A DNA stretch of 64,000 nucleotides from Planctomycetota bacterium (GCA_035527715.1 DATKZY010000096.1:4350-68349); one strand, 5' to 3'. Numbered from the stretch's first letter, positions 13,121 through 64,000 are shown. Program-made: numbers and translations. Notes: generated by a model not told the origin, from the letters alone.

Positions 13121-13131
13121 CACGAGCGCGG

Positions 13132-13300: not shown

Positions 13301-13512
13301 GGCTCACCGAGGTCCCGCGAGCGCAGCGGTCCACGGGGCCAAACGTCCAGCCTGGCGGCTCCGAGCACCTGAGCTGGCACTGCTGGGACGTGACGGACCT
13401 CGCCGGCAGAGAGGCTGCGATCCAGGTCGCGGACAAGCGCACCGGCGGCTGGGGCCACATCAACGTGGACCACATCATTCAGAGCGACAGGAAACGCGAG
13501 GAGAAGCCTGCC

Positions 13513-24251: not shown

Positions 24252-24261
24252 GTGCACGCCC

Positions 24262-25916: not shown

Positions 25917-26395
25917 ACGTCGCACGCTCATCCCGCCGCGGCTTGACCCTCATCGAGCTGCTCGTCTACATGGGCGTGCTCACCATCGTCGTCGGGGTCG
26001 CCTGGCTCGTCTACTACCGGTGCATCGAGCACTCGCTCGGCGTGCTGCGAAACGTGGACGACATCACCCGCGCGCTCAAGTCGGGCGAGCGGTGGCGGAC
26101 CGAGGTCCGCCGTGCCACGGCCCCGCCGCGGCTGGTGGACGGCGTGCTGCACGTCGCCACGCCTGACGGCGACGTGCTGTTCAAGTTCGCCGGCGACGCC
26201 GTGCTGCGGAAGGGGGCCGCGGAGGCCAGGTGGGCGCCCTTCCTCCCGAAGGTCAAGGCATCCAGGATGCAGCTCGACGAGGGCAAGCACGTCAGCTCGT
26301 GGCGCTGGGAGGTGGAGCTGGAGAGCAGGGCGAAGGCGGGCATCCGCCCCCTGTTCTCGTTCCGCGCGGTGCCGAGCGGCCGCGCGCCGAGGTGA
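25913..26395 (+). CDS. Second pseudopilin with a prepilin-type N-terminal motif
   Basis: RRGLTLIELLVYMGVLTIVVGVAWLVYY. Its ATG overlaps the upstream stop as ATGA. Confidence 0.7.
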   Translation: MNVARSSRRGLTLIELLVYMGVLTIVVGVAWLVYYRCIEHSLGVLRNVDDITRALKSGERWRTEVRRATAPPRLVDGVLHVATPDGDVLFKFAGDAVLRKGAAEARWAPFLPKVKASRMQLDEGKHVSSWRWEVELESRAKAGIRPLFSFRAVPSGRAPR

Positions 26396-37379: not shown

Positions 37380-38459
37380 CTATCGCTTCCGCCCACGCGC
37401 CTCCTCGTCAATCACCCGCGAGATGGCCAGCATGTTGGCCTGCCAGCGGCCATCGGGAATGTCCTCGGTGATGCCGATGATCAGGCGATTACCCGGGGCA
37501 GCCTCGCGGAGGACCTGCCGCGTCGTCGCCTCGATCTTCTCGATCGAGGCCAGGTGGAGCGACGAGGGGAAGTTGATCCAGAGCACCTTGCCCGGCCAGG
37601 CGGCCAACGCGTCGGTCGCGCTCATGTCCGTGTCGGGCGACGGGGTGAATGCCTCGACGTAGTCGAGGCCCGAGCCCGCCACGGCCTTCGCCCAGAGGCG
37701 GTTGTTGCCGTCGAGGTGGGCGCCCACGAGCTTGCCGTGGCGGTGGAAGACTTCCGCCGCCTCGTTGTAGAGGGGCACGACGTATCGCTCGAAGCGCTCC
37801 TTGCCCATGACCTCGGGCACCTCGTTGCCGCCGTAGTTGGCGTGGAGCGCGGGCGAGGCGGCGACGAGGGGGTAGATGCGGCGCTGCTGCTCGACCATGG
37901 CGTCGTAGAGCCGCAGCACCTCGTCGCGGCGCTCGGCCCACTCGACGGCGAACGCCTCGTGGCCCATCCAGTGGATCATGATCTCGTGGAGCGGCGTGAG
38001 GCCAATGCCGGCGCGGAGGATGAAGTCCTCGCCGAGCATCGCTTCGGCCTCGGCAAACGCCTCGTAGGCCGGCTCGTGGCGCTGGTCGTTGACCAGGAAG
38101 AGCAGCGGCCTGTAGTCCTCGGGCCGCTTGAAGAGTCGCTCGAGCTTCCACGACGTGAAGCCCGCGGGCTGGTCGAGGCTCGTGAGGTCCCCGACGGGCG
38201 TGTGGATGAGCGTCCGCACCCGCTCCTTGCCGTCCTCGGTGTAGCGGCGGGACTCGGTGGTCACGTTGGGCCGGGTGGTGTTTACCACGCCGCAGCGGTG
38301 GACGATGCAGAGGCCGTCGTTCCGCAGTTGCCGCTCGACGACGCACTGGGGCACCATGCCCTGGTACATCGTCAGCGGCGTCTTGTCGGGCACTTCCTGC
38401 CGCAGCACCATCTCGACCCGGCGGCGGGGGGTGGTTTCGGCTGGCGAGCGTTTCCTCAT
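37380..38459 (-). CDS. URO-D family protein, paralogue 2
   Basis: 359-aa ORF similar in style to 31684-32730. The start is uncertain; an internal MVLRQEV is the alternative. Confidence 0.65.
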   Translation of the reverse strand: MRKRSPAETTPRRRVEMVLRQEVPDKTPLTMYQGMVPQCVVERQLRNDGLCIVHRCGVVNTTRPNVTTESRRYTEDGKERVRTLIHTPVGDLTSLDQPAGFTSWKLERLFKRPEDYRPLLFLVNDQRHEPAYEAFAEAEAMLGEDFILRAGIGLTPLHEIMIHWMGHEAFAVEWAERRDEVLRLYDAMVEQQRRIYPLVAASPALHANYGGNEVPEVMGKERFERYVVPLYNEAAEVFHRHGKLVGAHLDGNNRLWAKAVAGSGLDYVEAFTPSPDTDMSATDALAAWPGKVLWINFPSSLHLASIEKIEATTRQVLREAAPGNRLIIGITEDIPDGRWQANMLAISRVIDEEARGRKR

Positions 38460-38503
38460 GGGGGTTCCTCGGCCGTCGGGGGGCGTTCAAAGCTTCCCGC
38501 GTC

Positions 38504-43415: not shown

Positions 43416-43441
43416 CCAAGAACGGATAGGAGGTCCCTGCC

Positions 43442-46400
43442 TTGTCAAGAACTCTGACCTCACTATTGGCCGTGATGATTCTCGCTTCAATGCTAGCGCT
43501 TACTCGCGCCGGGGAGTACGACACCGGCGGCGCGCTGGCGGGCTACAGGCTGCCGCCGTTCCCGACACAACACGGCGAGAAGCCAGGACAGCCAGGGGAG
43601 CTGCCAGGGAAGCATGACAGCGACCCGCTCGCGCCCTGCTTCGAGCTGAACCCCGGCTCGCCCGAGCTGTACCGCAACTACTGGTTCAAGTACTGCCCGT
43701 CCCGCAGCTTCTTCGACCGGCAGAGCAAGCTCAAGGGCTGGGTGGCGCCGAACATCCCCGGGGCGGCGAAGGCCGAGGACTACGCCACGCCGCTCTACTG
43801 GGTGCCGCGCCACGAGGCCGTGGTGAACACGGGGCTGAAGTGGAAGGCCCTGCCAGTCGTCCGCTGCTCCGTCGGCTCGCCCGTCCTCAAGCTCGACCTC
43901 GGGGAACTGGAGATCGGCGTCTACGCCATTCGGCTCGTCGCCGCCGTGCCCACGGAGCAGCTCAAGCCGTTCCGCACCCCGCTCTACGTGCGGGCGAAGA
44001 TCAACGACGGGCCGAAGGGCGCGACCAACACCTATCGCCTGCGCCTCGGCTATTGCGACGAGTTCTACAGCATCGCCGAAATCTACTTTCACGCCGACGA
44101 GAAGCGGCGGTTCAACGCCGAGGTCGCGGTGGACGAGGGGAGCGGAGTGGAGATGCTGCTCCACGAAATCTCGCTGGACGATGCGCTGGCGGGCGTCGAG
44201 CGCCGCGCCATCAAGTCGCGCACCACCCTGCCCGAGGCCCGGCCGCCCGCGCCTTCCAACGTGGAGCCGCCGAAGGAGCAGCGGCTCTCCCGCGACGCCG
44301 AGGTCTGGCTCGCCTTCCCCCACGACAACGCCCAGGCATTCGGCCACGGCTGGATGGGCGGCGACGAGCACACCCTCCGCCGGAACGTCGCCATCGGCGT
44401 CCCAGGCAAGACCGCGAGGGAAATCGCCGACGAGTTCGGCGACTGGCGGCCCGGCAAGGGCGACGTCTTCCTCGTCAACAAGAAGCTCCAGCTCGAATAT
44501 ACCGTGGCCGACTACCGCAAGGGCCTGCCCCTGCCCGCCCCCTATCCCTATCGCGACGACGGCGCCGGCCTCTTCTTCCCCGACCCCGCCGATCCGGGCA
44601 AGGGGCACCTCTGGGCGCCCATCGCCAACGAGGTGCAGAGCCGCTTCCGCAACTACTGCGGCACCCTCGTGCGGCGGAACGTGGACAAGTTTCTCAAGAC
44701 GGGCGACACCAACGCCGCCCGCGAGGCCGCCGTCGCCCTGGCCCGCTGGGCCTACGCCTTCCCCACCATTGACGCCGCGAACTTCCTCCTCTACGTCACC
44801 CGCGACCCCGGCCCCTACGGCCGCGACATCCGCTGCCGCCGCCGCGACTCCACGGCCACCTTCTACCCCCACTACCCGCTCTACGTGGACCCCATTCTCT
44901 ACGACTACGACCGTCTGTTCGACTTCATCAAGGGCAACGCCGAGCTGGCCGAATCCATCGGCCGCTTCGTCCCCTGGGTCAAGACGCCGCAGGACGTGGT
45001 GAAGCTGATTGACGCCTATCTCGTGCAGACGACGGCCAAGCGCATCCTCCGCTATCACTACTACACCGACCCGATGGACATCGCGAATGCGGCGGCAGTC
45101 GTTGGCGACACAAAGGTTACAGACCCGTGGATGGAGTGGCTGTTCTCCAAGACCTTCATCTACCCCCTGCCGCCGGTCGGCATCGCCGACGCGATGATCA
45201 CGGGGTGCTGCCGCGACGGCTGCGAGTACATCGGCTCGACCTTCTACGCCGGGGGCGAGGGGGCGTCGCGCGTGGCCGAATCGCTCGAGCGCTATCTCAC
45301 GGCCGGTGGCAACCGCAAGTACGACCTCAGCGACAAGGCGCGCTACCCGAAGCCCGTCGCCCACTGCACCTGGCGGCTCAAGAACGTCGTGGCCGGCTGG
45401 GACTTCGTGCGCATCGGCGACGTCTGCGGCCCCGACAAGGTGGCGGGCCACACCCTTCGCGACCTCGGCTTCGCCCGCAACGGCTGGGAGTGGACGGCCG
45501 ATCCCCGCTTCGCCTTCATCCTCAAGCACACCATCGGCCGCAAGGAGGAATCGGACGACGATTGGGCGAAGATCGAGGCGGCCGCGGCCAAGCTCAAGCG
45601 CGCCCCGTGGCTCGACCTCCGCTCGCGCGTCATGCCCATGTGGGCGGGCGTGCTCGAGAGCGGCCTCGAGCACGACGACCCGCGTTTCCGCCGCGCCGCC
45701 TACGTGCGCGTCGGCTTCGGCATCGGCCACCAGCACGCCGACACGATGGACCTCCAGGTCATCGCCCAGGGCTGCCCCGCGACGATGGACGGCGGCCAGC
45801 GGCCCGGCTACTCCAGCCCGGGCGACGGCACGACTCGCGTGCACAACGTCGTCGAGGTGGATGGCAAGGGCTTCCAGGGCTACTCGTGGGTGCGGGCCCT
45901 CGCCGACACCCCCGGCGCCCGCTACCTCGCGGCCGAGGCCGAGCCGCCGGAGGGGGCGACGCTCTTCCGCCGCCAGGTCGCGCTCATTGACGTGGACGAG
46001 GGGCAAGGCTCAAAGCCCCTGCCCATCGAGGCCCAGAAGCCCGGCTCCAAGCTGCCCGCGGGCGTGACGCCCGCGAACTCCTACGTCTTCGACGTCTTCC
46101 GCGTCGCCGGCGGCAAGACCCACACCTACTGCTTCCACGCGACGGTCGAGGACGACTTCCAGTGGAACGTGGCCGACGCGAAGCCCGTGGCCGAAGACGA
46201 CGCGAGCGAGGTCGGCCAGTACCTCGACAGGTTCAAGAGCCTGCCCCAGAAGCGCTTCGCGGGCACCGCGCCCGACCTCCTGGAGGCCACCTGGCGCCAG
46301 ACGCGCGAGCCGCGGCTCTTCGGCAACGAGGGCATGCACCGCCGCCCGAACTTCTCCGACGACCTGCCCCGCCGCTTCACCCGCCTCCACCTGCTCGATG

Positions 46401-47437
46401 CCAAGGGTGCCCGCGCCATGCGCGGCAGCCTCAACTGCCGCAACTTCAAGTACGACTTCGCCAACCTCTTCGTCCAGAAAGTCGCCGAGAAGGACTCGCA
46501 GGACGCTGCCTTCGTCGCCCTCATCGAGCCCTTCGTCGGCGAGCCGTTCATCACCGGCAAACGGCTGCTCAACGTGCAGGTGGGCAACATGAACGGCACG
46601 CCGAAGAACCTGGGGAACGCGGCCTACAAGGCCGTCGCCGTCGAGGTGAAGACGGCGAATGGCCACACCGACATCTGTTTCGCCGATGGGCTGCCCTTTG
46701 TGGACCGCCTCATCCCGGAGGCCAAGATGCACCTGTCGGGCGAGTTCGCCTGCGTCTCGACCGACAAGGAGGGCTTGCGCCTGGCCACCCTTGCTGGCGG
46801 CATGCTCCTCGAAGCGCCGGGCATCAAGCTCGTGCCCGCCCAGCGCGTGCGGACGGGCAGGGTCGTGAAGGTGGATTACCTTACGAAGACGCTGTGGATT
46901 GACCAGCCCTGGCCCGCGAGCGCGCGGCCGAGCGTCTTCGAGATCGGCGTGCCCGGCCACTGGACCACCTACACGGCGCTCGACGTGAAGCCCGATGGGA
47001 ACCTGACCCGCATCACGGTCGAGAATGGCGCCGACTACTTCCGCTCGGGGATCGAAGAGATCAAGCCCGAGGAGGGCATTGTCCGCTGCGCCCTCGGCCC
47101 CACGATGGGCAACCGCCCCGGCATCAACAAGGGCTGGGTCGCCTCGGACGACGAGATGACGACCTTCTGGCGGGCCGACCTCGTGGGCGACAAGACGTTC
47201 AAGCTCACCGGCGCGCCCGTGACGAAGGAGGCGTTCGGCAAGGCGGGCGTCCTGCGCCTGTGGGAGTATGGCGTCGGCGACACCGTGCGCCAGAGCACGT
47301 TTGTCAACGTCCGCCGCACCGCCGCCGGCCAGTTCGAGCTGACCGCCGATGTAGATGTCACCATCACCCTCCCCGACGGCAAGCCGCGCACCGTCACCGC
47401 CAAGGAGCTGGACGCAGAGGGGAAGGTGCGATGGTAG
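43442..47437 (+). CDS. Large secreted heparinase II/III-like (polysaccharide lyase superfamily) protein, 1331 aa
   Basis: TTG start preceded by AGGAGG at an 8-nt spacing. Signal MSRTLTSLLAVMILASMLALTRA. GFGIGHQHADTMDLQVIAQG matches the Hepar_II_III GHxHxD...F.L...G motif. The stop TAG overlaps the first REP. Confidence 0.8.
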   Translation: MSRTLTSLLAVMILASMLALTRAGEYDTGGALAGYRLPPFPTQHGEKPGQPGELPGKHDSDPLAPCFELNPGSPELYRNYWFKYCPSRSFFDRQSKLKGWVAPNIPGAAKAEDYATPLYWVPRHEAVVNTGLKWKALPVVRCSVGSPVLKLDLGELEIGVYAIRLVAAVPTEQLKPFRTPLYVRAKINDGPKGATNTYRLRLGYCDEFYSIAEIYFHADEKRRFNAEVAVDEGSGVEMLLHEISLDDALAGVERRAIKSRTTLPEARPPAPSNVEPPKEQRLSRDAEVWLAFPHDNAQAFGHGWMGGDEHTLRRNVAIGVPGKTAREIADEFGDWRPGKGDVFLVNKKLQLEYTVADYRKGLPLPAPYPYRDDGAGLFFPDPADPGKGHLWAPIANEVQSRFRNYCGTLVRRNVDKFLKTGDTNAAREAAVALARWAYAFPTIDAANFLLYVTRDPGPYGRDIRCRRRDSTATFYPHYPLYVDPILYDYDRLFDFIKGNAELAESIGRFVPWVKTPQDVVKLIDAYLVQTTAKRILRYHYYTDPMDIANAAAVVGDTKVTDPWMEWLFSKTFIYPLPPVGIADAMITGCCRDGCEYIGSTFYAGGEGASRVAESLERYLTAGGNRKYDLSDKARYPKPVAHCTWRLKNVVAGWDFVRIGDVCGPDKVAGHTLRDLGFARNGWEWTADPRFAFILKHTIGRKEESDDDWAKIEAAAAKLKRAPWLDLRSRVMPMWAGVLESGLEHDDPRFRRAAYVRVGFGIGHQHADTMDLQVIAQGCPATMDGGQRPGYSSPGDGTTRVHNVVEVDGKGFQGYSWVRALADTPGARYLAAEAEPPEGATLFRRQVALIDVDEGQGSKPLPIEAQKPGSKLPAGVTPANSYVFDVFRVAGGKTHTYCFHATVEDDFQWNVADAKPVAEDDASEVGQYLDRFKSLPQKRFAGTAPDLLEATWRQTREPRLFGNEGMHRRPNFSDDLPRRFTRLHLLDAKGARAMRGSLNCRNFKYDFANLFVQKVAEKDSQDAAFVALIEPFVGEPFITGKRLLNVQVGNMNGTPKNLGNAAYKAVAVEVKTANGHTDICFADGLPFVDRLIPEAKMHLSGEFACVSTDKEGLRLATLAGGMLLEAPGIKLVPAQRVRTGRVVKVDYLTKTLWIDQPWPASARPSVFEIGVPGHWTTYTALDVKPDGNLTRITVENGADYFRSGIEEIKPEEGIVRCALGPTMGNRPGINKGWVASDDEMTTFWRADLVGDKTFKLTGAPVTKEAFGKAGVLRLWEYGVGDTVRQSTFVNVRRTAAGQFELTADVDVTITLPDGKPRTVTAKELDAEGKVRW

Positions 47438-48175
47438 GGCGTGCATACTTGCACGCGGAACGAATTGGGGTGACCTCGGCTATCGAAGATTCCGCGTGCA
47501 GGTATGCACGCCCTACCAAGGAGACCGGGCATGCCGCAATATCGCAGGTGGCGGGTCGAGGGCGGCATGTACTTCCTGACGGTTGTGACCCATGAACGGC
47601 GGCGAGTCTTCGCCGCGGAGTGGACGCGACAACTGCTCCGCGAGGCGATCTCAAAGGTGCGAGCCATTCGACCCTTTGAGGTGACGGCGATGGCTCTCAT
47701 GCCCGATCACTTCCACATGCTCTGGCAACTCCCCGATGGTGACGACGATTTCTCAACGCGTCTCGGCTCCATCAAGTACGCGTTCACCCGCGCATACTTG
47801 GCAGCCGGTGGGGAGGAAGGCGCGACAAGCGTGGGGCGGACTCGCCACAGGAATCGCGGGGTGTGGCAGAAGCGGTTCCACGAGCACCGCATCCGCGATG
47901 ACCAGGACTTCACCCGGCATGTGGAGTACATCCACTACAATCCCGTGAAGCACGAATACGCGGATTCCCCGGCGAAGTGGCCGTGGTCGAGCTTCCACCG
48001 TTACGTGAAGCTCGGGCTCTACGGCGAGCAGTGGTGTGACCCGGAGAACGCCGCTGAACTCGGGCCAGAGCCGGGCTTTGAGTGAAGCACGGTAGGGCGT
48101 GCATACTTGCACGCGGAACGAATCGGCGCCGGCGCCAGGGACAAGGGATTCCGCGTGCAAGTATGCACGCCCTAC
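47434..48175 (+). mobile_element. REP-RAYT unit: a tyrosine transposase gene flanked on each side by a convergent pair of REP hairpins
   Basis: REPs at 47434-47461 (+), 47489-47516 (-), 48092-48119 (+) and 48148-48175 (-), all variants of GTAGGGCGTGCATACTTGCACGCGGAAC, which contains the hairpin CGTGCA-TACT-TGCACG. The RAYT CDS lies between them. Confidence 0.85.
47531..48085 (+). CDS. REP-associated tyrosine transposase (RAYT, IS200/IS605 Y1 family)
   Basis: HuH motif PDHFHMLW and the catalytic Tyr block EYIHYNPVKH. 184 aa. Confidence 0.85.
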   Translation: MPQYRRWRVEGGMYFLTVVTHERRRVFAAEWTRQLLREAISKVRAIRPFEVTAMALMPDHFHMLWQLPDGDDDFSTRLGSIKYAFTRAYLAAGGEEGATSVGRTRHRNRGVWQKRFHEHRIRDDQDFTRHVEYIHYNPVKHEYADSPAKWPWSSFHRYVKLGLYGEQWCDPENAAELGPEPGFE

Positions 48176-48192
48176 CGAAGAGGGAAGAGCTG

Positions 48193-49344
48193 ATGGCAAT
48201 GGACTTCGCGGCCCACAACGCCGAGGTGAAAGAGGTGTGGAAGCGCTTCCGCGACGGGAAGCCCTCGCGGGTGCCGATGGTGCTCGGCATCTCGTCGCGC
48301 TTCACGATCCTCAACCCCGCCATCAACACGAAGAGCGTCGCCTACGAGGAGTACTTCAACGACCCCGACGTGATGTTCGAGACGCAGCTCCGCCACCAGC
48401 ACTGGATTCGCCACAACCTGGTCCAGGACGCCGAGATGGGCCTGCCCGAGGCGTGGACGGTGAGCGTGGATTTCCAGAACAGCTACGAGGCGCTCTGGTG
48501 GGGCGCGCCGCTGCGGTTCATCGAGGGCAACGTGCCCGACTCGCCGCCCTGCATCACCGACGCGACGAAGGCGGCCTTCATCGCCCGCGGCATCCCAAGC
48601 CCTTTCGGCGGCTGGATGGGGCGGAACTGGGACTATCTCGAGCACTTCAAGGAGCGGGGGAAGAGCTACGAGTTCTGCGGCCGGCCCGTGAAGGCCGGCT
48701 CGCCGACCGGCTGCGGCACCGACGGGCCGTTCACCATCGCCTGCGCGCTGCGCGGCCCGACCGGCATCTGCCTCGACATGTACGCCGACCCCGCCTTCTA
48801 CCACGGCCTGATGAGCCTGCTCGTCGAGGGGGCGATCCGCCGCATCCGCGCCTATCGCGAGCGGCTCGGGCAGCCGGTCGAGAGCAAGGCCTGGGGCTTC
48901 GCCGACGACAGCATCGCGCTCCTCTCGCTGGACACCTACCGTGAGCTTGTGCTACCTTACCACAAGCGGCTCATCGAGGCGTTCGGCCCGGAGGGGCCGA
49001 ACTCGATTCACCTGTGCGGCGACGCGACGCGCCACTTCAGGACCATCCGCGACGAGTTGAAGGTGACGAGCTTCGACACCGGCTTCCCCGTGGACCACGG
49101 GGCGCTGCGGCGCGAGTTGGGGCCTGACGTGACGATTCAGGGCGGGCCGCACGTCGAGCTGCTGCGGACGGGCAGGCCGCGAGCCGTCCGCTCCGAGGCG
49201 AAGCGCATCCTGCGTTCGGGCGTGATGGCGGGCGGCAAGTTCGTGCTGCGCGAGGGGAACAACCTCGCCCCCTTCACCCCCGTCGCCAACGTCGCGGCCA
49301 TGTACGCCGCGTGCAAGGAGTTTGGCAGGTACGAGTCCACGTGA
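48193..49344 (+). CDS. URO-D family protein, paralogue 3
   Basis: MAMDFAAHNAEVKEVWKRFRDGKPSRVPM. RBS AGGGAAGAG. 383 aa. Confidence 0.75.
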   Translation: MAMDFAAHNAEVKEVWKRFRDGKPSRVPMVLGISSRFTILNPAINTKSVAYEEYFNDPDVMFETQLRHQHWIRHNLVQDAEMGLPEAWTVSVDFQNSYEALWWGAPLRFIEGNVPDSPPCITDATKAAFIARGIPSPFGGWMGRNWDYLEHFKERGKSYEFCGRPVKAGSPTGCGTDGPFTIACALRGPTGICLDMYADPAFYHGLMSLLVEGAIRRIRAYRERLGQPVESKAWGFADDSIALLSLDTYRELVLPYHKRLIEAFGPEGPNSIHLCGDATRHFRTIRDELKVTSFDTGFPVDHGALRRELGPDVTIQGGPHVELLRTGRPRAVRSEAKRILRSGVMAGGKFVLREGNNLAPFTPVANVAAMYAACKEFGRYEST

Positions 49345-55573: not shown

Positions 55574-57490
55574 TTGAGACAACGTGCTTCGGCGTTCCTG
55601 GCCGGGCTCCTCGCCCTGTCCGCGGCCCTCGGCCTCGCAGGGGAGCCGGCCCCGCCGCTGGCCGCGGCCGACATCGAGGCGCTCTCCAAGTCACTCGAGA
55701 AGGTCGTCGCCGTCGTTCAGGGCAAGCTGCCCGTCTACACGGTGACGCTCGCGGGGCGCTACAAGGACGGCGCGCTCGAGCAGGGGGCCGAGCTGACGAT
55801 CGCGCGCCGCGACGCCGACCAGTTCCGCCTCGCGCTCAAGTCCGACCTCCTCAGCTTCACCCTCCAGCGGACGAAGGACGAGACGGCCCTCGTCGTGCCG
55901 CTGCTGAAGGTGGCCGTGGTGGGCAAGGGGCCGCTGCCGGCCGAGTCGGAGCTTCAGCCCGCGCGCCTCTTCGGCCGCATCGCGGGCCTGTGGCCCGCCT
56001 CGCTCACCGTGCTCGGCGTGATGCAGACGGCAGAGCCGGGGGCCGTGGCCGTGATCGTCCAGGCGTTGCTCCAGATCGCGCGGGCGCCCGACAAGCCGGC
56101 GGGGCACTTCGTGGCGAAGCGCGACCTCGGCGGCGGCACGCTCTCCATCGAGCTGGCCGACGACGGGAAGGCGATCCGCCAGCTCCTGTGGCGCGACGCC
56201 GAGGGCGTCGAGGCCGGCGTCGGCATCGCCATCGCCGAAGAGGCGAAGTTGCCCGCGGAGCCGCTGGCCGACGATGTCGTGGTGGTGAACGTGCCGCGCG
56301 ACGAGCTGGAGCGCACGCTCGGCCGCGGCCTGGGCCGCGCCGCCGAAATCCTCGCACACGAGCAGTCGGGCGGCAAGCTCAAGGACGGCGAGCGCATCGC
56401 CGACCGCGGGCGCCTGGTCATCCGCAAGGGGCAGCGGGTCGCCCTGCTCGAGGGCTCGCCCCTCGAAGTCGGCTTCCAGCACGGCAAGCTCCTCGCGGCC
56501 GAGGCGCGGCGGGTGGCCGACTCGGTGCTCTACGTGGCGGGCCTCTACTACACGGTGACGAAGCGGGAGTGGTTCCTCGACACCTTGCGCGGGGCGCTCG
56601 CGCGGCTCGAGCCGCACGTGCCGCAGGAGTACTGGGACGAGGTGCAGGGCCTGGCGAACGGCTCGGGGCTGGCGCCCGAGGAGGCGCGGCTGGCCAGCGT
56701 GTTCCCCGAGCTGTTCCACTGCTCGGGCTTCGCGCTCTTCGGCAAGGCCACGGCGGGCGGCAGACTGCTCCACGGGCGGGTGCTCGACTACATGACCGAG
56801 CTGGGCCTCCAGCGCGAGGCGGTCGTCTTCGTGGTGAAGAAGAAGGGCGCCATCCCCTTCGCCAACGTGGGCTACGCCGGCTTCATCGGCAGCGTGTCGG
56901 GCATGAACGCCGAGCAGGTGGCCTTCGGCGAGATGGGCGGAAAGGGCGAGGGGCAGTGGGACGGCACGCCCATGGCCATCCTGATGCGCATGGGCCTCGA
57001 ACGGGCCAAGACCCTCGACGACGCCATCCGCATCTTCCGCGAGGCGAAGCGGACGTGTGAGTACTACTACGTCATCTCGGACGGCAAGGGCCCGAGCGCC
57101 GTCGGCGTCGCCGCGACGCCCGACCGAATCGAGTTCGTCAAGCCCGGCGAGGCCCACCCCAGGCTCCCGGCGCCCGTGGACGACGCGGTGCTGCTCTCGG
57201 CCGGCACGCGGCTACAGGAGCTGGTGAAGGCGGTGAAGGCGAAGCACGGGCAATTCGACGAGAAGGCGGCCATCGAGCTGATGAAGCGGCCCGTCGCCAT
57301 GCGGGCGAACCTGCACAACGTGCTCTTCGTGCCGCAGGACCTCGTGTTCCACGTGGCCAACGCCAAGGGGCGGTCGCCCGCGTGCGACCAGCCCTACGTC
57401 CGCTACAGCCTCCGCGACCTGCTCGACGAAATGGCCAGGCCCCTCCCCCCGCCCGGCAGGAAGCCCCGCCGAGGCGGGGATTCCTTCTAG
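55574..57490 (+). CDS. Secreted protein with a C-terminal peptidase C45 (acyl-CoA:6-APA acyltransferase-like) Ntn-hydrolase domain
   Basis: TTG start 45 nt after the -10 box. Signal peptide LRQRASAFLAGLLALSAALGLAG. FHCSGFALFG resembles the C45 autoproteolytic site with a nucleophilic Cys. Confidence 0.7.
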   Translation: MRQRASAFLAGLLALSAALGLAGEPAPPLAAADIEALSKSLEKVVAVVQGKLPVYTVTLAGRYKDGALEQGAELTIARRDADQFRLALKSDLLSFTLQRTKDETALVVPLLKVAVVGKGPLPAESELQPARLFGRIAGLWPASLTVLGVMQTAEPGAVAVIVQALLQIARAPDKPAGHFVAKRDLGGGTLSIELADDGKAIRQLLWRDAEGVEAGVGIAIAEEAKLPAEPLADDVVVVNVPRDELERTLGRGLGRAAEILAHEQSGGKLKDGERIADRGRLVIRKGQRVALLEGSPLEVGFQHGKLLAAEARRVADSVLYVAGLYYTVTKREWFLDTLRGALARLEPHVPQEYWDEVQGLANGSGLAPEEARLASVFPELFHCSGFALFGKATAGGRLLHGRVLDYMTELGLQREAVVFVVKKKGAIPFANVGYAGFIGSVSGMNAEQVAFGEMGGKGEGQWDGTPMAILMRMGLERAKTLDDAIRIFREAKRTCEYYYVISDGKGPSAVGVAATPDRIEFVKPGEAHPRLPAPVDDAVLLSAGTRLQELVKAVKAKHGQFDEKAAIELMKRPVAMRANLHNVLFVPQDLVFHVANAKGRSPACDQPYVRYSLRDLLDEMARPLPPPGRKPRRGGDSF

Positions 57491-57819
57491 GAGCCTGTCC
57501 AGAAATCCACGTGCGGCTGCGACGCCGCGATTGAGGCCGCGGGCGGGGTCCTCCTCCTGCGCCGTCGCGCGGCGAAGTGGAGGGCGATGGCGCCGAGGGC
57601 GATGGCGAGGCCGAGCGCGCCGACGAGGAGGCCGGCCTGGGTGGGCGCCAGGGCGCGGACGACCGCGGTGGCGAGGTCGGGCGGCGAGCCGTCGGTGTGG
57701 GCCTGCGCGAGGGCGACGACGGCGGTCATGCGCCGCACGGCGAGAAACAGCCCGAGGGCCGGCCCGCCGAACGTGACGGCCAGCCCGGCGATCAGGGCGA
57801 AGAAGTGAGCTTTCTTCAT
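57487..57819 (-). CDS. Small membrane protein (110 aa), convergent with the C45 gene
   Basis: MKKAHFFALIAGLAVTFGGPALGLFLAV, followed by a second hydrophobic helix and an Arg-rich tail. GGAG lies 9 nt upstream. Confidence 0.45.
   Translation of the reverse strand: MKKAHFFALIAGLAVTFGGPALGLFLAVRRMTAVVALAQAHTDGSPPDLATAVVRALAPTQAGLLVGALGLAIALGAIALHFAARRRRRRTPPAASIAASQPHVDFWTGS
57488..57535. repeat. Roughly 48-bp conserved element that starts at a stop codon (TAGGAGCCTGTCCAGAAATCCACGTGCGGCTGCGACGCCGCGATT); a second copy lies at 61389-61437
   Basis: Aligns with 61389-61437 (TAGGAGCCTGTCCGAGAATCCGCGTGAGGCTGCGACGCCGGCGATT) with few mismatches. Both copies start exactly at the TAG of unrelated genes. 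Confidence 0.6.
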
Positions 57820-57987: not shown

Positions 57988-58016
57988 TTGCAAAGGAGGT
58001 GGGGCGCTAGTATAAT
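57988..58016 (+). promoter_or_regulatory. Strong sigma70-like promoter: TTGCAA, 17-nt spacer, TATAAT
   Basis: TTGCAA at 57988-57993 and consensus TATAAT at 58011-58016. The AGGAGG sits inside the spacer and so is not an RBS. Confidence 0.6.
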
Positions 58017-58068
58017 CGGGAGCCTGCGTGGGTGTGTCCTCCGCGCGTGGGGCGTTGGAGACAGAGCG

Positions 58069-60555
58069 TTGGCAGGGTTCACGTTCGTTGGCCGCGAGGC
58101 TCAAGTCGCCGCGTTCCGGCAGATGCTGGAGCGCCCGGAGGGGGAGGCGCTGCTGGTGGCGGGCGCGGAGGGCTGCGGCAAGTCGCACCTGCTGCGTCAG
58201 TTGCGGCACGAGGCCGAGCGCGTGGGACGCCACGTGGTGCTGCACTGCTGCCTGGGGCACCTGCTGGACGCGGACCTGCGGCAGTATGCCATCCTGAGCT
58301 CGGTGGCGGCGGCCCATGAGCCGGCCGCGCTGCACGCGGGGGGGATGCCGTCGGAGAGAGGCCCCGCGGGGCGGCTGGTGCCCAATCCCCGCGAGTTCTT
58401 CGGCCACCTGCTGGGCGAGGACCACCGCCCCGTGAGCGAGAAGCTGCTGGGGCTGCTCTCGGTGGCCTCGGGCCACCTGGCCCCCGAGAGCCGCCTCGTG
58501 CTGCTGCTCGACCTGGGGCGCGCCCAGAGCGGGAATGCCTTTCCCGTGGAGTACCTGACCCGGCGCCTGCCCGAGAACGTGAAGCTGGTGATCGCGGCAG
58601 GCGTGGTCCCCGAGGGTTTGGCCGACCTGCGGAACGCGGCGATCGTGCCCGAGCTGCCGCCCTTCGGCGAGGCAGAGGTCGCGCGGCTGCTGGACTTCCA
58701 TCTGCCGCGCGGGACGGCGGTGCAGCCGCTGGCGGCGGTGGCCCTCGAGGTGTTCCAGGGCTCCCCCCTGCTGACCGATCTGGCGGCGAAGCTGGTCGCG
58801 GACTCGGCGAGCCCCGCGGCCGCCCTGGGCACCCTGCCGGCGTCGGCCCCGGACCTCTGCCAGCAACTGCTGGCCCACCTGAGCGAGGAGCAGCGCGCGC
58901 TGGTGGACTGCCTGGCCCGCGTGCCGTCGGGGCTGGATGCGACGGCGCTGCGCGTGCTGCTGGGCCTCTCGGAGGCGGATCTCCAGCGGCTGTTGCTGTG
59001 CGAGGAGATCCGCAACGTGGTGGTGCTGCAGCGCGGGCCGCGGGGCATCGATGCCTGCCTCTCCCACGAGAGCCTGGGCGACCTGTACCTCGGCGAGAAG
59101 GACCCGCAGACCGCGGTCTTCCACAAGCGCGTGGCCGCGCACTTCCTGGGCCTCGTGCACAAGGACCCCCACCACGTCGAGGCCCTCAGCGCGCATTCCT
59201 ACCACATCCGGCTCTCGGGCGACCCCACGCAGTTCATGCAGGACTTTCCCAGGACTCTCAGGCTCAAGCAGGGCCTGGGCCTCCTGCACCTGCTGGCCAG
59301 CGAGTACCGGCTGCTGCTGATGTGGTCCAGGACGAGCGACACCCCGATCAACCGCGCGCTGTGCACGGCCAACCTCGCCCGCATCTACCAGCAGCTCGGG
59401 GCGCACCAGGAGGCCCTCCGGCACCACAAGGAGGCCCTCGACACCTATCAGAAGCAGCGCGACCGCAGCGGCACGGCCGTGCAGCTCGGCTGCATCGCCT
59501 CGGCGCTGTGCGACCTCGGGCACCACGACGAGGCCATCAAGTCGCTCCAGCAGGCCATGGCCATCAACGAGGCCCTGGGCAGCAAGGCGGCCCTGGCCTC
59601 GGACCTCACGAGCCTGGGGACGCTTCAGGAGCGCCTGGGGCGCCTTCACGACGCCCTGCACTCGCACCAGCGGGCGCTCGACCTCTATCGCGGCCTCAAG
59701 GACGAGTTGGACGCCGCGACCCAGCTCAGCCGCATCGCGGCCATCCACCGCAAGCTCGGCAACCGGCGCGAGGCCGTGGCCCGGTTCCAGGAGGCCTGGC
59801 GCCTCAACAGCCGCAACGGCGCCGCGCGGGCCGAGATTGACGACCTGTGCAACCTCGGCTTCGTCTTCGAGGAACTCAAGGAGACGGGCAAGGCCGTCAC
59901 CTGCGTGCAGCAGGCCATCGAGCTGGACCACTCGCTGGGCGACCGCCACGCGGAGGGCAGCCACCTGCGCATCCTGGGCTCCATGCACCTCGAGCAGCAC
60001 GAGCCCGCCGAAGCGGTGCGGTGCCTCGAGCAGGCGGTCACGCTCGCCCGGTCGTTCGGCGACCCGGGCGGCGAGGCGGCCGGGCTGCTCGCCCTGGCCA
60101 AGGCCCAGCGCGCCGCGGGCCGCCCGGCCGACGCCCGGCAGGCCCTCGAGCAGGCCGCGGCTCTCGCCGCGCGCCTGAGCGATGCCGACACGGCAGAGCA
60201 GGTGCGCACCGCCCTCGGAGAACTCGGCAGCGCGTCCGGCGAGCAGGTGGAGTCCCAGGAGAAGGAGGAGTCCGAGTCGGGCGCGTCGAAGGCCGCCGCC
60301 GACGCGCCCGCCGTGGAACCTCCGCCCGAGGAGGTGGGCATCGAGGAGGCCCACACCCCGCTCGCCGAGGAGCCCGAGTTGGTCCCCGCGGCGGAAGCCG
60401 CCGAGATCCTCGGCGGCGAGGACGTGGCGGCCCTGCGCGCCGAGCTTGCCGAGGCCCGCCGCGAGATCGCCGAGCTCAAGGCCGAAGTCGAGCAACAGAA
60501 GCAGATCGCGGACGCCCTCAAGGAAGTCATGGCCAAGGCCATGCAAGACCGCTGA
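58069..60555 (+). CDS. STAND-type P-loop NTPase with C-terminal TPR repeats and an acidic coiled-coil tail
   Basis: FVGREAQVAAFRQMLERPEGEALLVAGAEGCGKSHLLRQL (Walker A) and LVLLLDLG (Walker B). At least 8 TPR units and a C-terminal EAEVEQQKQIADALKE coiled coil. A TTG start at 58069 fits the promoter; ATG 58123 and the ORF-track start 57985, which lies upstream of the -10 box, are the alternatives. Confidence 0.7.
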   Translation: MAGFTFVGREAQVAAFRQMLERPEGEALLVAGAEGCGKSHLLRQLRHEAERVGRHVVLHCCLGHLLDADLRQYAILSSVAAAHEPAALHAGGMPSERGPAGRLVPNPREFFGHLLGEDHRPVSEKLLGLLSVASGHLAPESRLVLLLDLGRAQSGNAFPVEYLTRRLPENVKLVIAAGVVPEGLADLRNAAIVPELPPFGEAEVARLLDFHLPRGTAVQPLAAVALEVFQGSPLLTDLAAKLVADSASPAAALGTLPASAPDLCQQLLAHLSEEQRALVDCLARVPSGLDATALRVLLGLSEADLQRLLLCEEIRNVVVLQRGPRGIDACLSHESLGDLYLGEKDPQTAVFHKRVAAHFLGLVHKDPHHVEALSAHSYHIRLSGDPTQFMQDFPRTLRLKQGLGLLHLLASEYRLLLMWSRTSDTPINRALCTANLARIYQQLGAHQEALRHHKEALDTYQKQRDRSGTAVQLGCIASALCDLGHHDEAIKSLQQAMAINEALGSKAALASDLTSLGTLQERLGRLHDALHSHQRALDLYRGLKDELDAATQLSRIAAIHRKLGNRREAVARFQEAWRLNSRNGAARAEIDDLCNLGFVFEELKETGKAVTCVQQAIELDHSLGDRHAEGSHLRILGSMHLEQHEPAEAVRCLEQAVTLARSFGDPGGEAAGLLALAKAQRAAGRPADARQALEQAAALAARLSDADTAEQVRTALGELGSASGEQVESQEKEESESGASKAAADAPAVEPPPEEVGIEEAHTPLAEEPELVPAAEAAEILGGEDVAALRAELAEARREIAELKAEVEQQKQIADALKEVMAKAMQDR

Positions 60556-60578
60556 GCCCGAATCCCGGAGTGCTGGCC

Positions 60579-61391
60579 ATGCTCAAGTGGCTGTTCGCAC
60601 GCAAGCACAAGAGGCCAAGTGGCCCCGAGCCCGAACGCACGCCGCACGCGGCCGCCGCGGCGGCCCCCGCCAGCCGGCCCGAGGCCCCGACGCCGCTGCC
60701 CCTGGAACCCGCACCCCTGCCCCCTGCCGAGGACGCGCACAGCCGCACGGCCGACGACGTGCTCCGCATGCTCGCCACGGGCGACGAGACCCCGCCCCCC
60801 GGGGAAGCCGTCGAGGAGCCGGTGGACCCCAACCTGGGGCGGCACCTGCTCGCCGAGGGGCCGGTCACGCGGGAGTTCCTCCACCAGCAGCTCGCGGTGA
60901 GCGGCAAGGCCGACTCGTATCTGGGCCACCTGCTCGCCACCGTGCACGCCCCGGGCGAAGCGCGGCTCGTCAGGCTGCTCGCGGTGGACTATCGCGTGCC
61001 GGACGTGGACCTGAAGCAGTGCAAGATTCCCATCGCGGTGGCACGCCTCGTGCCGCTGGAGATCCTGACCAAGTACAAGATGATCCCCATCGACCGGATC
61101 GGCGACCTGTTGTGCGTCGCGTTCGCGGGCGAGGTCAACCCGAAGGCCACGGAGGCGGTCCGCCGAGCCACGGGGCTGCGCGTGAAGGCGCTCCGATGCC
61201 CCCCGCACCACATCGAAATCCTGTTGAGGCGGCTCATGCACGAGCCTGCTGCCGCCAAGCCGGCCGTCCAGGCCGTCCGCGCCCTCCCCATCTCGGATGC
61301 CGAGTACGAGGAGGCGGCCCGCGGGCCGGAGGACCGGTGGGAGGCCGTCCACGCCTCGCGAGGCCCACTCCGCGCCGTGCGGATTGCCTAG
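60579..61391 (+). CDS. Standalone T2SSE_N (GspE N-terminal / MshEN-like) domain protein with a Pro/Ala-rich N-terminus
   Basis: LGRHLLAEGPVTREFLHQQLAV...LGHLL...LLAVDYRVPDVDL...PIAVARLVPLEILTKYKMIPIDRIGDLLCVAFAGEVNPKATEAVRRATGLRVKALRCPPHHIEILLRRL follows the T2SSE_N pattern. Confidence 0.65.
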   Translation: MLKWLFARKHKRPSGPEPERTPHAAAAAAPASRPEAPTPLPLEPAPLPPAEDAHSRTADDVLRMLATGDETPPPGEAVEEPVDPNLGRHLLAEGPVTREFLHQQLAVSGKADSYLGHLLATVHAPGEARLVRLLAVDYRVPDVDLKQCKIPIAVARLVPLEILTKYKMIPIDRIGDLLCVAFAGEVNPKATEAVRRATGLRVKALRCPPHHIEILLRRLMHEPAAAKPAVQAVRALPISDAEYEEAARGPEDRWEAVHASRGPLRAVRIA

Positions 61392-61437
61392 GAGCCTGTC
61401 CGAGAATCCGCGTGAGGCTGCGACGCCGGCGATTCTG
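61389..61437. repeat. Second copy of the post-stop conserved element (see 57488-57535)
   Basis: Direct alignment to copy 1, beginning at the TAG of the T2SSE_N gene. Confidence 0.6.
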
Positions 61438-61488
61438 GCCGCACGCGAGGCAGGCGGCACCCCACGACACCAGGGATTGCACACAGCC

Positions 61489-62337
61489 ATGGGAGACACT
61501 GACCCCGCCGGCGCCGCGAAGCGCTGCATCCTCCTGGCCGTCCCCGAGGACGGCCTTTTCGCGCCCATCATCCAGGCGGCACTCACCCGCGGCGGGTGGG
61601 AGGCGCGCCTGGTGGACGGTGCCGAGGCCCTCCTGGCCGCGGCCGAGGAGCGCCGAGCGGCCCTGGTGGTGCTCGACATGGGGCACCGCTGGGCCCAGGA
61701 GGCCCTGGAGGCCCTGAAGATTCAGGCGGAGACCAACTGGGTGCCGGTGGTGGCCCTGTTCCCGCGCGAGCGCGACCCGCGCCGCCCCCAGGAGCTCCGC
61801 GTGCGGGCCGACGTCGAGCTGGTCGAGCCGGTCGCCATCCACGACCTCGTCGCCGCGGCCGAGAGCAAGGCCATCCGCTCCAGCCAGCCGCCTTCGGCCC
61901 GGAAGGTGCGCATGATCCTGCCCAGCCGCCCGGCCGACCTCGCGCGCGCCGTCGAGCTCACCGTGCCGCTCCTGCACGCCAGCGGCCTCGACGAGGCGGC
62001 CCAGGCCTCCCTCCAGGCCGCACTCCGCGAGGCCATCGGCAACGCCATCCAGCACGGAAACCGCCGCGACCCCGCCAAGAGCGTCCGCGTCGAGTACCGC
62101 CAGAACCCCGCCGCCGTCACCCTCGCCGTGCGCGACGAAGGCCCCGGCTTCGACGCCGAGCACTACCTGCGCCTGGCCGCGGCCACCGACGCCGCCGCCG
62201 CCGCGCGCAACCGACACGCCGAAGGCGGCCAGGGCGGACTCGGCATCCTCATGCTCACCCGCCTCACCGACCGCGTGCGCTACAACAAGGCGGGCAATCT
62301 CGTCAACCTCACCAAGTTCGTCCGACGCCGCAGTTGA
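61489..62337 (+). CDS. Receiver (CheY-like) domain fused to an RsbW/SpoIIAB-like anti-sigma-factor serine kinase (HATPase_c) domain
   Basis: Receiver-like CILLAVPED...ALVVLDMG...VPVVALF, followed by the GHKL blocks EAIGNAIQHGN (N box), VRDEGPGFD (G1) and GGLGILMLTRLTD (G2). Confidence 0.7.
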   Translation: MGDTDPAGAAKRCILLAVPEDGLFAPIIQAALTRGGWEARLVDGAEALLAAAEERRAALVVLDMGHRWAQEALEALKIQAETNWVPVVALFPRERDPRRPQELRVRADVELVEPVAIHDLVAAAESKAIRSSQPPSARKVRMILPSRPADLARAVELTVPLLHASGLDEAAQASLQAALREAIGNAIQHGNRRDPAKSVRVEYRQNPAAVTLAVRDEGPGFDAEHYLRLAAATDAAAAARNRHAEGGQGGLGILMLTRLTDRVRYNKAGNLVNLTKFVRRRS

Positions 62338-62428: not shown

Positions 62429-64000
62429 ATGACGACGATGCCATTTCGGATCTCGGGTTTCGGATTTCGGACTGACAATCGCCCATCCGCAATCCGCAAT
62501 CGGCAATGGTGGCTCCTGGCCTGCCTCGGCCTCTGCTGCCTGCTCACCCCCTGCGTCCCCGCGCGAGCCGCCACCTGCGTGGACCAGGCCATACAGCAGG
62601 TCGTGGCCCAACTCGAGGACGGCGCTCCCGAGGAAACCATCAACGGCATCGCCATCTGGCTCTGGCTCGACGACAAGCTCCCCGAGCCCGTGCGCCGCGC
62701 CTTCCGCGACGACCTCGAGATCGCGCTCATCAACTCCCCCCGCTTCCAGTACTTCAACCGCGACCGCTTCCGCCAAATCCTCCGCGAGCACCAGGTCACC
62801 CTCGCCCAGGTCGCCGACCCCGCCACCATGAAGGCATTCGCCGCCGCGGGCATTGACGGCTTCCTCTCCATCGAGGTGCTCGACACCTCCTTCGCGCACC
62901 CCGAGTTCCAGGAGCAGGACGCCTATTGCGTCATCCTTGCCAAGCTCACCGACGCGAAGACCGCCTCGATCGCCTGGGCCAACTTCATCGAAGGCGCCAA
63001 CCCCGTGGCCCTCAAGGCACTCCTGGGCGACGTGCGAGCCGCCAAGGGCTCGACCCGCTACCGCGAGCTGGCCACGGCCATCGCCGAGAGCCTCCGCAAG
63101 GCCGACCCCCTCCAGCCGCCCCCCGCTCCCGCCGAGGGCGCCGAGCCCGACCCCACCGCCCCCGCCCCTGCCCCTGCCCCCGCTCCCGAGGCCGCCGAGG
63201 AGACCGAGCCCGCCCCCAAGGTCATCACCCTCTCCACCCCCGCCAAGGACGGCTCCGCCGGCATCGGCGTCCAGAACCCCATCAACGCCTCCTTCGACCT
63301 CAAGGCCTTCCAGGACGAGCTCCTCGTCGCCGTCTCGAAGACGCGAAACCACGCCTACGTGGACCCCACGCACATCGCGCGCCTGGTCGCGGCGTGGACC
63401 CGCGACAGCGAGGCGACCGCCACGGCGAACAAGCAGTCGCTCGCCCAGGCATTCGCCCTCGACGGCTATCTGTTTGGGGAAATCCGCAGCGCCGACGACC
63501 GCTCCATCGAGCTCTCCATGCGCCTGACCAGCCTCGCCGATGGCTCCGAGGCCTGGGCCGGCAAGTTCCACGGCGCCGACTCCTTCCTCCAGATCGAGCC
63601 CAAGCCCCTGCCCGATCCCCCCGTGCCACGCGAGGACCCCAAGGAGCCGGCCCCGCTGACCCTCGAGGACATCGAGCGCCCCCTCAAGCCCCCCGTCCCG
63701 CAGCCCGAGCTCCTTCCCCTGCCCGAAATCCCCGCCCCGCCCCGATGCTTCAACCCCCTCGCCGCGCTCCTCTACCTCCCCATCGGCCTCCCGCGCGACG
63801 CACTCGACGCCGTGTTCATGACCACCGACCGCGTCCCGCTCCTCGGCGCCGCCACCTCGGCCCTCTACCGCTACAGCGGCCTCTCCCTCCTGTGCCGGGC
63901 CGGCACCCACGAACGCTTCCGCGAGGACATCACGACCGGCCGCGCCCTGACCTTTGGGCAACTCGCCTCGACCGACCCCTTCCCCACCTTCTTCCCCCTC
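62429..64000 (+). CDS. Lipoprotein/secreted hypothetical protein with a Pro-rich linker, partial (continues past the window end)
   Basis: ATG at 62429 preceded by GGAGGA. This frame is open for 1572 nt to the window edge and is absent from the ORF track because it has no stop. The N-terminus MTTMPFRISGFGFRTDNRPSAIRNRQWWLLACLGLCCLLTPCVPARAATC is signal-like, and the composition is mixed and protein-like. Confidence 0.55.
   Translation, partial: MTTMPFRISGFGFRTDNRPSAIRNRQWWLLACLGLCCLLTPCVPARAATCVDQAIQQVVAQLEDGAPEETINGIAIWLWLDDKLPEPVRRAFRDDLEIALINSPRFQYFNRDRFRQILREHQVTLAQVADPATMKAFAAAGIDGFLSIEVLDTSFAHPEFQEQDAYCVILAKLTDAKTASIAWANFIEGANPVALKALLGDVRAAKGSTRYRELATAIAESLRKADPLQPPPAPAEGAEPDPTAPAPAPAPAPEAAEETEPAPKVITLSTPAKDGSAGIGVQNPINASFDLKAFQDELLVAVSKTRNHAYVDPTHIARLVAAWTRDSEATATANKQSLAQAFALDGYLFGEIRSADDRSIELSMRLTSLADGSEAWAGKFHGADSFLQIEPKPLPDPPVPREDPKEPAPLTLEDIERPLKPPVPQPELLPLPEIPAPPRCFNPLAALLYLPIGLPRDALDAVFMTTDRVPLLGAATSALYRYSGLSLLCRAGTHERFREDITTGRALTFGQLASTDPFPTFFPL

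Follow-up and report, generated by a model that had tools for sequence, protein, structure and literature searches.

SypE, HsbR and CrsR are multidomain response regulators uniting a receiver and an RsbW-type kinase domain, and their outputs need not be sigma factors; they also carry a PP2C domain, possess phosphorylatable receivers and act on STAS proteins. In this report, we focus on an operon of Planctomycetota that begins at position 57988 of a 64-kb stretch of DNA (the window, whose coordinates are used throughout). It encodes, all on the plus strand, a STAND NTPase with TPR repeats, a standalone MshEN (GSPII) domain protein, a fusion of a receiver fold with an RsbW/SpoIIAB-type GHKL domain, and a predicted exported protein. 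We propose, giving the reading about an even chance, that this operon is a cytoplasmic signalling module of a small uncultured clade of Planctomycetota, working as a partner-switching-like circuit.

The closest known architecture to that of the receiver–GHKL fusion is LvrC of Leptospira interrogans (PDB 9QIH; PMC13269768), which associates a receiver fold with an RsbW/SpoIIAB-type Bergerat domain over a similar length, and whose Rec domain is phosphorylated at D53 by LvrB (PMC13269768). The pairs RsbW–RsbV and SpoIIAB–SpoIIAA (PDB 6M36, 1TH8) resemble our system in their GHKL fold with intact N-box, G1 and G2 motifs, and in the location of the kinase gene in an operon with small partner proteins. 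As to the MshEN protein, its counterparts are the N-domains of MshE, PilB and PilF (5HTL, 8PDK, 9G1W, 7LKO; PMC5013675, PMC12002112), with which it shares the fold, the two 24-residue motifs, the five-residue spacer and the alpha/beta subdomain. Among these, PilF GSPII-A is a GSPII domain that does not bind cyclic di-GMP (c-di-GMP), and small deviations abolish binding (PMC12002112). Finally, the STAND protein is built like the MalT/AfsR-type STAND ATPases, with a TPR array placed after an AAA_16 NOD that harbours the Walker A and B motifs. Each domain is thus familiar, but the combination of a STAND protein, a standalone MshEN protein with degenerate motifs and a putative pseudo-receiver joined to an RsbW-type kinase was not found in the searched literature, nor was any mention of anti-sigma or partner-switching components together with an MshEN protein.

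A Conserved Promoter-Driven Operon

The elements of the operon are as follows.

57988–58016, plus strand: sigma-70-type promoter, TTGCAA-N17-TATAAT, with an extended −35 TTGCAAAGG
58069–60555, plus strand: STAND NTPase-TPR protein, 828 residues, TTG start (Pfam AAA_16, TPR_12)
60579–61391, plus strand: standalone MshEN/GSPII-domain protein, 270 residues (PF05157, AlphaFold2 (AF2) model, Foldseek)
61489–62337, plus strand: putative pseudo-receiver with RsbW/SpoIIAB-type GHKL kinase or anti-factor (HATPase_c_2, phmmer, AF2, Foldseek)
62429–64000, plus strand: predicted exported protein, about 800 residues, continuing past the window end (synteny, orthologue alignment)

Profiles were built for the four gene families and run against every fetched locus, and gene order and strand are constant over 25 distinct loci of uncultured Planctomycetota. 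In 18 of the 19 loci with enough sequence, the MshEN gene is directly preceded by the STAND gene or by its tail, and in 23 out of 24 it is directly followed by the GHKL gene, the last locus being a truncated match. The fourth gene follows the kinase gene in 9 of the 12 distinct loci where the sequence extends far enough. In the window, 23 bp separate the STAND and MshEN genes, and in the other loci intergenic gaps are short or the genes overlap. Chance adjacency of the genes is ruled out by this synteny. Several loci have common neighbours, such as adh_short and Mur ligase genes; outside these genes, the neighbourhood varies from locus to locus, which indicates that we are dealing with a module and more than a conserved neighbourhood. 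The region is, therefore, one conserved promoter-driven operon of four genes. An earlier note on this DNA, made from the sequence alone, had recognised the STAND, MshEN and receiver–kinase genes behind a promoter, and each of these elements was found where it had placed them; it had closed the unit at 62337, whereas the operon goes on with the co-oriented fourth gene from 62429.

Ten of the 12 promoter positions agree with the sigma-70 consensus, the −10 element being perfect and the −35 element identical to TTGACA at four of six positions, so that the previous description of the site as a consensus promoter is slightly generous. It is the only site of the TTGCAA-17-TATAAT type in the window, where shuffled sequences yield 0.00 such sites (0.1 in a 6.7-kb region). 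TTGCAA-N17-TATA(A/C)T is found 50–68 nucleotides upstream of the STAND start in all ten aligned loci, while the DNA around it has diverged. In addition, each of 23 loci of up to 20 kb contains a single copy of the pattern, invariably at the operon head; the motif is missing from the rearranged locus L001, which is described below. These features argue for a real, conserved sigma-70-type promoter, predicted to drive the operon. The leader measures only about 45 nucleotides, and neither an Rfam family, as expected of a leader RNA element or riboswitch, nor a tRNA was detected in the window. In a divergent relative of lower G+C content (L041), the promoter motif (579–607) stands immediately upstream of the MshEN gene (733–1323), with no STAND gene between them.

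With regard to distribution, the proteins of the operon bear the database labels 'hypothetical' and 'ATP-binding' in a Planctomycetota metagenome-assembled genome, and the G+C content of the window is about 70%. The 62 homologues of the MshEN protein all measure 156–280 residues and all come from Planctomycetota metagenomes. One genome per species was scanned, and the family was present in 6 out of 185,579 species genomes, a metagenome scan adding 26 loci. Among 1.84 billion representative proteins, a profile search returned only ten matches at E ≤ 1e-30. Protein identities within the module range from about 48% to about 77%. The module is confined to a narrow uncultured clade of Planctomycetota.

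The STAND NTPase-TPR Protein

Three regions are distinguished in the first product.

About 58081–58575, plus strand: NOD (AAA_16; Pfam)
About 59317–60174, plus strand: TPR array (Pfam)
60220–60552, plus strand: acidic linker and C-terminal coiled coil (composition, tail alignment)

The AAA_16 domain is detected with 45.0 bits (cut-off 32.6), and the Walker A (GxxGxGKS) and Walker B (hhhhDLG) motifs are kept in ten orthologues. Many TPR families match the central region, TPR_12 reaching 103.8 bits over five stretches, while TPR_MalT, with 30.1 bits, stays under its cut-off of 45. The tail comprises 111 residues, 26% of which are Asp or Glu, has an isoelectric point (pI) of 4.2, and ends in a heptad-like, coiled-coil-like helix of 42 residues. 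The previous reading of this protein as a P-loop STAND ATPase with TPR sensors and an acidic coiled-coil tail thus agrees with the AAA_16 and TPR_12 matches and with the composition of the tail. Pfam shows no N-terminal effector or adaptor domain, the NOD beginning at residue 5, and the tail is the sole extra region beyond the NOD and TPRs. In this respect, the protein departs from the MalT/AfsR-type ATPases, as a conserved acidic linker and coiled coil takes the place of a DNA-binding or effector domain.

A conserved N-terminus, xAGFTFVGR, is shared by ten orthologues and begins at a TTG or GTG codon after a GGAG ribosome-binding site. Since, in addition, the promoter overlaps position 57985, where the open reading frame (ORF) opens, the start is assigned to the TTG codon at 58069 rather than to 57985. 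Seven loci use TTG and three GTG as the STAND start codon, never ATG, behind a near-consensus promoter; this usage suggests a deliberately weak translation of the STAND sensor. In the other loci, the starts are located at 7544 (L003), 7420 (L005), 169 (L007), 7547 (L008), 7504 (L009), 2088 (L010), 1975 (L012), 458 (L013) and 3834 (L014).

A rearrangement of this gene was noticed in L001/L011 (6619–9975; GCA_041320515.1), where, upstream of the MshEN gene, a DUF4838 protein continues in frame into only the last 135 or so residues of the STAND protein. The part that is kept consists of the final TPR helix, the acidic linker and the coiled coil. The fusion may have arisen naturally, or else be a chimera of the assembly.

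The Standalone MshEN Protein

The second product is made of two parts.

Residues 1–84, plus strand: Pro/Ala-rich disordered region (composition)
Residues 82–235 (60822–61283), plus strand: MshEN domain (Pfam, NCBIfam)

The N-terminal region contains 21% Pro and 18% Ala. The domain that follows matches PF05157 with 38.8 bits (cut-off 23.1), and NCBIfam aligns residues 82–235 with the C-terminus of NfrB and the N-terminus of PilB. In the AF2 model, the predicted local distance difference test score (pLDDT) exceeds 90 over the MshEN domain, residues 84–221 being confidently predicted and the remainder disordered. The best Foldseek matches of this model are the MshE N-domain with c-di-GMP, the PilF GSPII domains, the PilB-N:PilZ complex and XpsE-N (top entries 5HTL, 8PDK, 7LKO and 2D28), in agreement with the MshEN fold of a four-helix N-subdomain and an alpha/beta subdomain; the matches listed include no STAS protein.

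The fate of the c-di-GMP motifs, as defined by Wang et al. (PMC5013675), deserves attention. Both 24-residue motifs can be aligned, as can the five-residue spacer between them, and their spacing and hydrophobic positions are retained. Nevertheless, none of the 27 members carries the Arg at position 1 or the Gln at position 24 in either motif, and an invariant Pro occupies position 11 of motif I. Motif II, which fits the strict motif at 3–6 of 11 positions only, has no turn Gly in 26 of the 27. Since Arg and Gln are absent from both motifs in all members, the label 'c-di-GMP-binding' that had accompanied the domain assignment is doubtful, while the Pro/Ala-rich region and the MshEN domain and fold are borne out. 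Judged from these residues, c-di-GMP binding by the protein is unlikely, and its motif state resembles that of PilF GSPII-A.

Besides these substitutions, the protein differs from MshE, PilB and PilF in that it stands alone, without an ATPase. It is further distinguished by family-specific traits, namely, a basic N-terminus (MWPFRRKKR-like), three invariant Cys and a short C-terminal motif, RWExxHAxxGPxRA. The three residues, C148, C179 and C207, are invariant in 27 out of 27 members, but not in more distant relatives, and may represent a redox or metal site.

The Receiver–GHKL Protein

Two domains share the third product.

Residues 13–130 (61525–61878), plus strand: putative pseudo-receiver (Response_reg sub-threshold, phmmer, AF2)
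Residues 138–278 (61900–62322), plus strand: RsbW/SpoIIAB-type GHKL domain (HATPase_c_2)

HATPase_c_2 is detected by Pfam with 83.2 bits, while Response_reg (PF00072) scores 15.7 bits, under its cut-off of 30.2. When the protein was compared with the PDB by phmmer, both halves were recognised, the first as related to the PrrA receiver (E = 2e-6) and the second to RsbW (E = 9e-6). An alignment-based AF2 model (pLDDT 88.7, predicted TM-score 0.86) shows the elements beta1-alpha1 to beta5-alpha5 of the receiver fold, except that a conserved Pro-rich loop stands in place of alpha-4. Foldseek retrieved LvrC as the best match of this model (9QIH, E = 2e-12, 318 columns), then SpoIIAB, RsbW and many receiver domains, with target TM-scores of 0.8–0.9 for SpoIIAB/RsbW and 0.7–0.8 for the receiver domains.

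The nucleotide-binding motifs of the GHKL domain are invariant in 26 sequences, namely, E181 and N185 of the N-box, D216, G218 and G220 of the G1 motif (D216xGxG), and G246–G252 of the G2 motif. The receiver has evolved otherwise. D63 is kept in 25 of the 26 sequences, and comparison with PrrA reveals that the acidic pair DD is replaced by P/E and variable, the Ser/Thr by F91 and the Lys by E113. By its sequence, the domain would qualify as a pseudo-receiver that has kept its Asp, with three of the five catalytic positions (acidic pair, Thr, Lys) lost across the family; we read it as sitting on a GHKL kinase or anti-factor that is probably active. The previous description as a CheY-like receiver fused to an anti-sigma-type GHKL kinase holds for the receiver fold and for the GHKL domain, but the catalytic set of the receiver is, save for the Asp, lost across the family. 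SypE, HsbR and CrsR share with our protein the receiver and the RsbW-type kinase domain, whereas their PP2C domain, phosphorylatable receiver and STAS target were not found here.

A sub-branch of the family carries an additional domain, as the homologues P0084 and P0086 possess an HU/IHF-like domain (PF00216; 30 and 39.8 bits) at the N-terminus. This domain hints at an association with the nucleoid or DNA.

The likeness to LvrC raises the question of an orthodox pathway of the same type, in which an orphan histidine kinase would phosphorylate the receiver Asp and thereby release a sigma factor, and the MshEN protein would be a c-di-GMP receptor bringing a second signal. The structural match involves the whole protein, the canonical Rec domain of LvrC is phosphorylated by LvrB (PMC13269768), the Asp is almost always kept, and the MshEN protein has preserved its fold and the layout of two motifs with a five-residue spacer. 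However, the two proteins are only 17–18% identical, and no STAND or MshEN partner has been reported for LvrC, whose Rec domain is canonical, whereas here the Mg-binding acidic pair is missing, Phe stands for Thr/Ser and Glu for Lys family-wide, alpha-4 is replaced, and Response_reg remains sub-threshold. Moreover, the conserved unit includes no histidine kinase, and the c-di-GMP motifs are devoid of Arg and Gln in 27 out of 27 members, motif II lacking its turn Gly as well. We regard this pathway as unlikely.

The Fourth Gene

The gene starting at 62429 codes for a protein with a signal peptide, two LpoB/CsgG-like stretches, Pro-rich linkers, a coiled-coil segment and a Pro-rich C-terminus. 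Mean column identity reaches 60% across seven orthologues; in L003, the gene is located at 11827–14253. The conserved motifs include LTLEDIERPLKPP and DRVPLLGA, along with an invariant LTLE(D/E)IERPLKPP and a repeated DR(V/M)P(L)xGA. Pfam allows no family assignment beyond sub-threshold LpoB matches (22.0 bits for a cut-off of 22.3), and a profile search against the PDB retrieved low-complexity matches only and no relative of solved structure. From these features, the usual fourth member of the operon is predicted to be an exported envelope protein.

A Candidate Partner-Switching-Like Circuit

Taken together, the domains suggest that the most likely function of the operon would be a STAND-gated partner-switching-like circuit in which the partner of the kinase is the MshEN protein. 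The STAND protein would act as both sensor and scaffold, perceiving a ligand or a protein through its TPRs, and would switch or oligomerise with ATP, thereby exposing its acidic coiled-coil tail. The basic MshEN and GHKL proteins could then swap partners on this tail. Such an engagement of the tail is supported by charge complementarity, since the pI amounts to 9.6 for the MshEN domain and 9.5 for the GHKL protein, against 4.2 for the tail, and the importance of the tail is supported by L001, where it is kept in frame though the body of the gene has been replaced. The GHKL domain would either sequester its target or phosphorylate it on Ser/Thr, and the MshEN protein is its likeliest direct partner, in place of the STAS antagonist or sequestered factor of classical systems. 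The pseudo-receiver may serve as a protein-binding regulatory or docking domain and not as a phospho-acceptor, in which case no histidine kinase would feed the system. C-di-GMP probably does not serve as the input signal. As output, the circuit might act on a sigma factor whose gene lies elsewhere, or else on an envelope process tied to the fourth gene.

With regard to the components expected of classical partner switching, a Pfam scan of about 40 ORFs of the window found no STAS, PP2C or sigma-70 gene. Near the module, phmmer searches with SpoIIAA and RsbV queries, the sensitivity of which is limited, detected no STAS protein in any locus. A cognate STAS protein, which the earlier note had suggested looking for, is thus missing from both the scanned ORFs and, within the sensitivity of these searches, the fetched loci. 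Compared with RsbW–RsbV and SpoIIAB–SpoIIAA, the operon and window are devoid of STAS, PP2C and sigma factor genes, the small partner is an MshEN protein, and a STAND gene stands at the head.

The more distant relatives of the MshEN protein bring complementary information. The next tier of small standalone MshEN proteins has in common an LLAxGPIT motif and a C-terminal YAxxGPVxA, and four contexts, a small sample, were informative (L042, L044, L045 and L046; spans examined include 1–2473 in L042, 4969–7660 in L044 and 2585–5981 in L046). In L042 and L044, a divergent neighbour harbours a clear STAS domain (E = 2e-10 to SpoIIAA-type anti-sigma-F antagonists), together with a Zn ribbon and a weakly RsbW-like C-terminus. 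L046 contains a shorter version of this gene, followed by a PilT-like ATPase, and L045 carries two MshEN genes in tandem. A small PilZ-like gene follows the MshEN gene in L042 and L046, and synteny with efp and pfk is conserved in two loci. These contexts point to a recurrent link between the distant MshEN class and partner-switching components. The idea that the genes form one signalling or partner-switching-type circuit, already put forward for this DNA, is thus backed by the gene order in 25 loci, the conserved promoter and the STAS-adjacent MshEN relatives.

Several points weigh against this circuit. In the absence of STAS, PP2C phosphatase and sigma factor genes from the window and the vicinity of the module, it is incomplete by classical standards. 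The wiring among the four proteins is drawn from synteny and domain logic only. In the distant relatives, the RsbW-like similarity of the neighbours is weak (20 bits with Pfam, an hhalign probability of 30%), and the STAS domain coexists with the MshEN protein, which indicates that the latter is no simple substitute for STAS. The conservation of D63 leaves room for an unorthodox use of the receiver pocket. Lastly, mutation of Arg9 or Gln32 in MshE shifts c-di-GMP affinity less than fivefold (PMC5013675), and this modest effect, along with the retained hydrophobic scaffold, weakens the argument that the MshEN protein does not bind c-di-GMP.

A bolder version of the circuit can be envisaged, which would represent a new type. 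A STAND-gated GHKL protein, held by its pseudo-receiver, would sequester or phosphorylate an MshEN adaptor instead of a STAS protein or a sigma factor, and the released adaptor would dock onto GspE/PilT-type ATPases lacking their own N-domain (N-less), or onto PilZ partners such as the PilZ-S24 protein encoded at 20917–22044, thereby switching a secretion or pilus machine. We consider this version improbable.

Traffic ATPases and Other Alternatives

A related proposal, made by the earlier note, is that the MshEN protein represents the detached N-domain of the N-less GspE-type ATPase encoded at 22198–23259, on which it would dock in trans, so that the STAND/kinase circuit gates secretion or pilus activity. 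The ATPase is indeed a complete T2SSE core devoid of an N1/MshEN domain, as it aligns with positions 115–386 of the 486 of the GspE model and matches T2SSE only in Pfam, and such ATPases naturally begin with an MshEN domain, a domain that binds PilZ partners (PDB 7LKO is among the fold matches). The PilZ-S24 gene is divergent from the GspE core, and in L046 the distant MshEN relative lies about 1.2 kb from the PilT-like ATPase and adjoins a PilZ-like gene. However, that ATPase is PilT-like and only 33% identical to the GspE core of the window, where the MshEN and GspE genes, although on the same strand, are 36 kb apart with about 25 unrelated genes between them. Furthermore, none of the other 24 distinct loci contains a GspE-core homologue within 10 kb of the module.

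The distributions do not match either. The N-less GspE family numbers more than 6382 proteins (E ≤ 1e-40) and extends through Planctomycetota into Verrucomicrobia, whereas the MshEN family has 62 members and occurs in six species genomes; the ATPase must, therefore, work without the MshEN protein in most lineages. The best 120 of these more than 6382 homologues, Verrucomicrobia included, all measure 341–415 residues and carry PF00437 only, so that the N-less state appears as the norm and not as a defect. In sum, the domain assignments on which the proposal was built are confirmed and the relatives of the ATPase are N-less too, but no positive evidence links the two loci, neither physical proximity nor a matching distribution. 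We consider docking on this ATPase very unlikely.

The region of the ATPase has features of its own. A T2SS/T4P-like cluster (22198–25560 and 25742–26395, both plus strand) comprises the N-less GspE core, two GspF-like genes and a protein with a prepilin-type N-methylation motif (pseudopilin-like). Divergent from the GspE-core gene, and 153 bp from it, is a gene (20917–22044, minus strand) for a protein of 375 residues, in which a Pro-rich linker joins a PilZ domain (38.9 bits) to a Peptidase_S24/LexA-like domain at the C-terminus (35.3 bits); it is unusual to find such a fusion beside a traffic ATPase.

An Avs-like system of anti-phage defence, based on the STAND protein and with the downstream genes as effectors, is extremely improbable and was set aside on the negative PADLOC result. 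Defence systems commonly contain STAND NTPases with TPR sensors, and the outer neighbours vary between loci, but PADLOC returned a generic TPR match only and nothing for the other three proteins, and Pfam scans detected no effector domain of the nuclease, protease, TIR, SIR2 or pore-forming kind. The restriction to one narrow clade, the identities of about 48% to about 77% and the neighbours shared by several loci (adh_short, Mur ligase) fit vertical descent.

Other Features of the Window

Ahead of the operon, and divergent from its promoter, a gene (57487–57819, minus strand) that looks unannotated codes for a protein of 110 residues with two predicted membrane helices. It has a G+C content at third codon positions (GC3) of 0.94 and a GGAG ribosome-binding site, and overlaps by four nucleotides the end of the upstream AAT-like gene; the equivalent gap of L003 contains no counterpart.

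Two large ORFs on the plus strand, at 43430–47437 (1335 residues) and 8217–10319 (700 residues), display a coding-type GC3 and no Pfam match. Three URO-D-like paralogues are located at 31684–32730 (minus strand), 37380–38486 (minus strand) and 48082–49344 (plus strand), and in L007 a URO-D gene comes directly after the module. The window also holds two FGE-sulfatase genes, a sulfatase and glycoside hydrolases.

Implications for Planctomycetota

The pairing of MshEN and STAS proteins in the distant relatives suggests a role for MshEN/GSPII domains in partner-switching networks, beyond that of c-di-GMP-sensing heads of ATPases. Should the improbable docking of a released adaptor onto traffic ATPases prove true, the small MshEN proteins of Planctomycetota would be detachable, regulated N-domains of these enzymes. 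As for the suggested role of MshEN/GSPII domains in partner switching, its confirmation would bring into a well-studied signalling logic a partner of a new kind, and would provide a function for a widespread class of small 'hypothetical' proteins of Planctomycetota.

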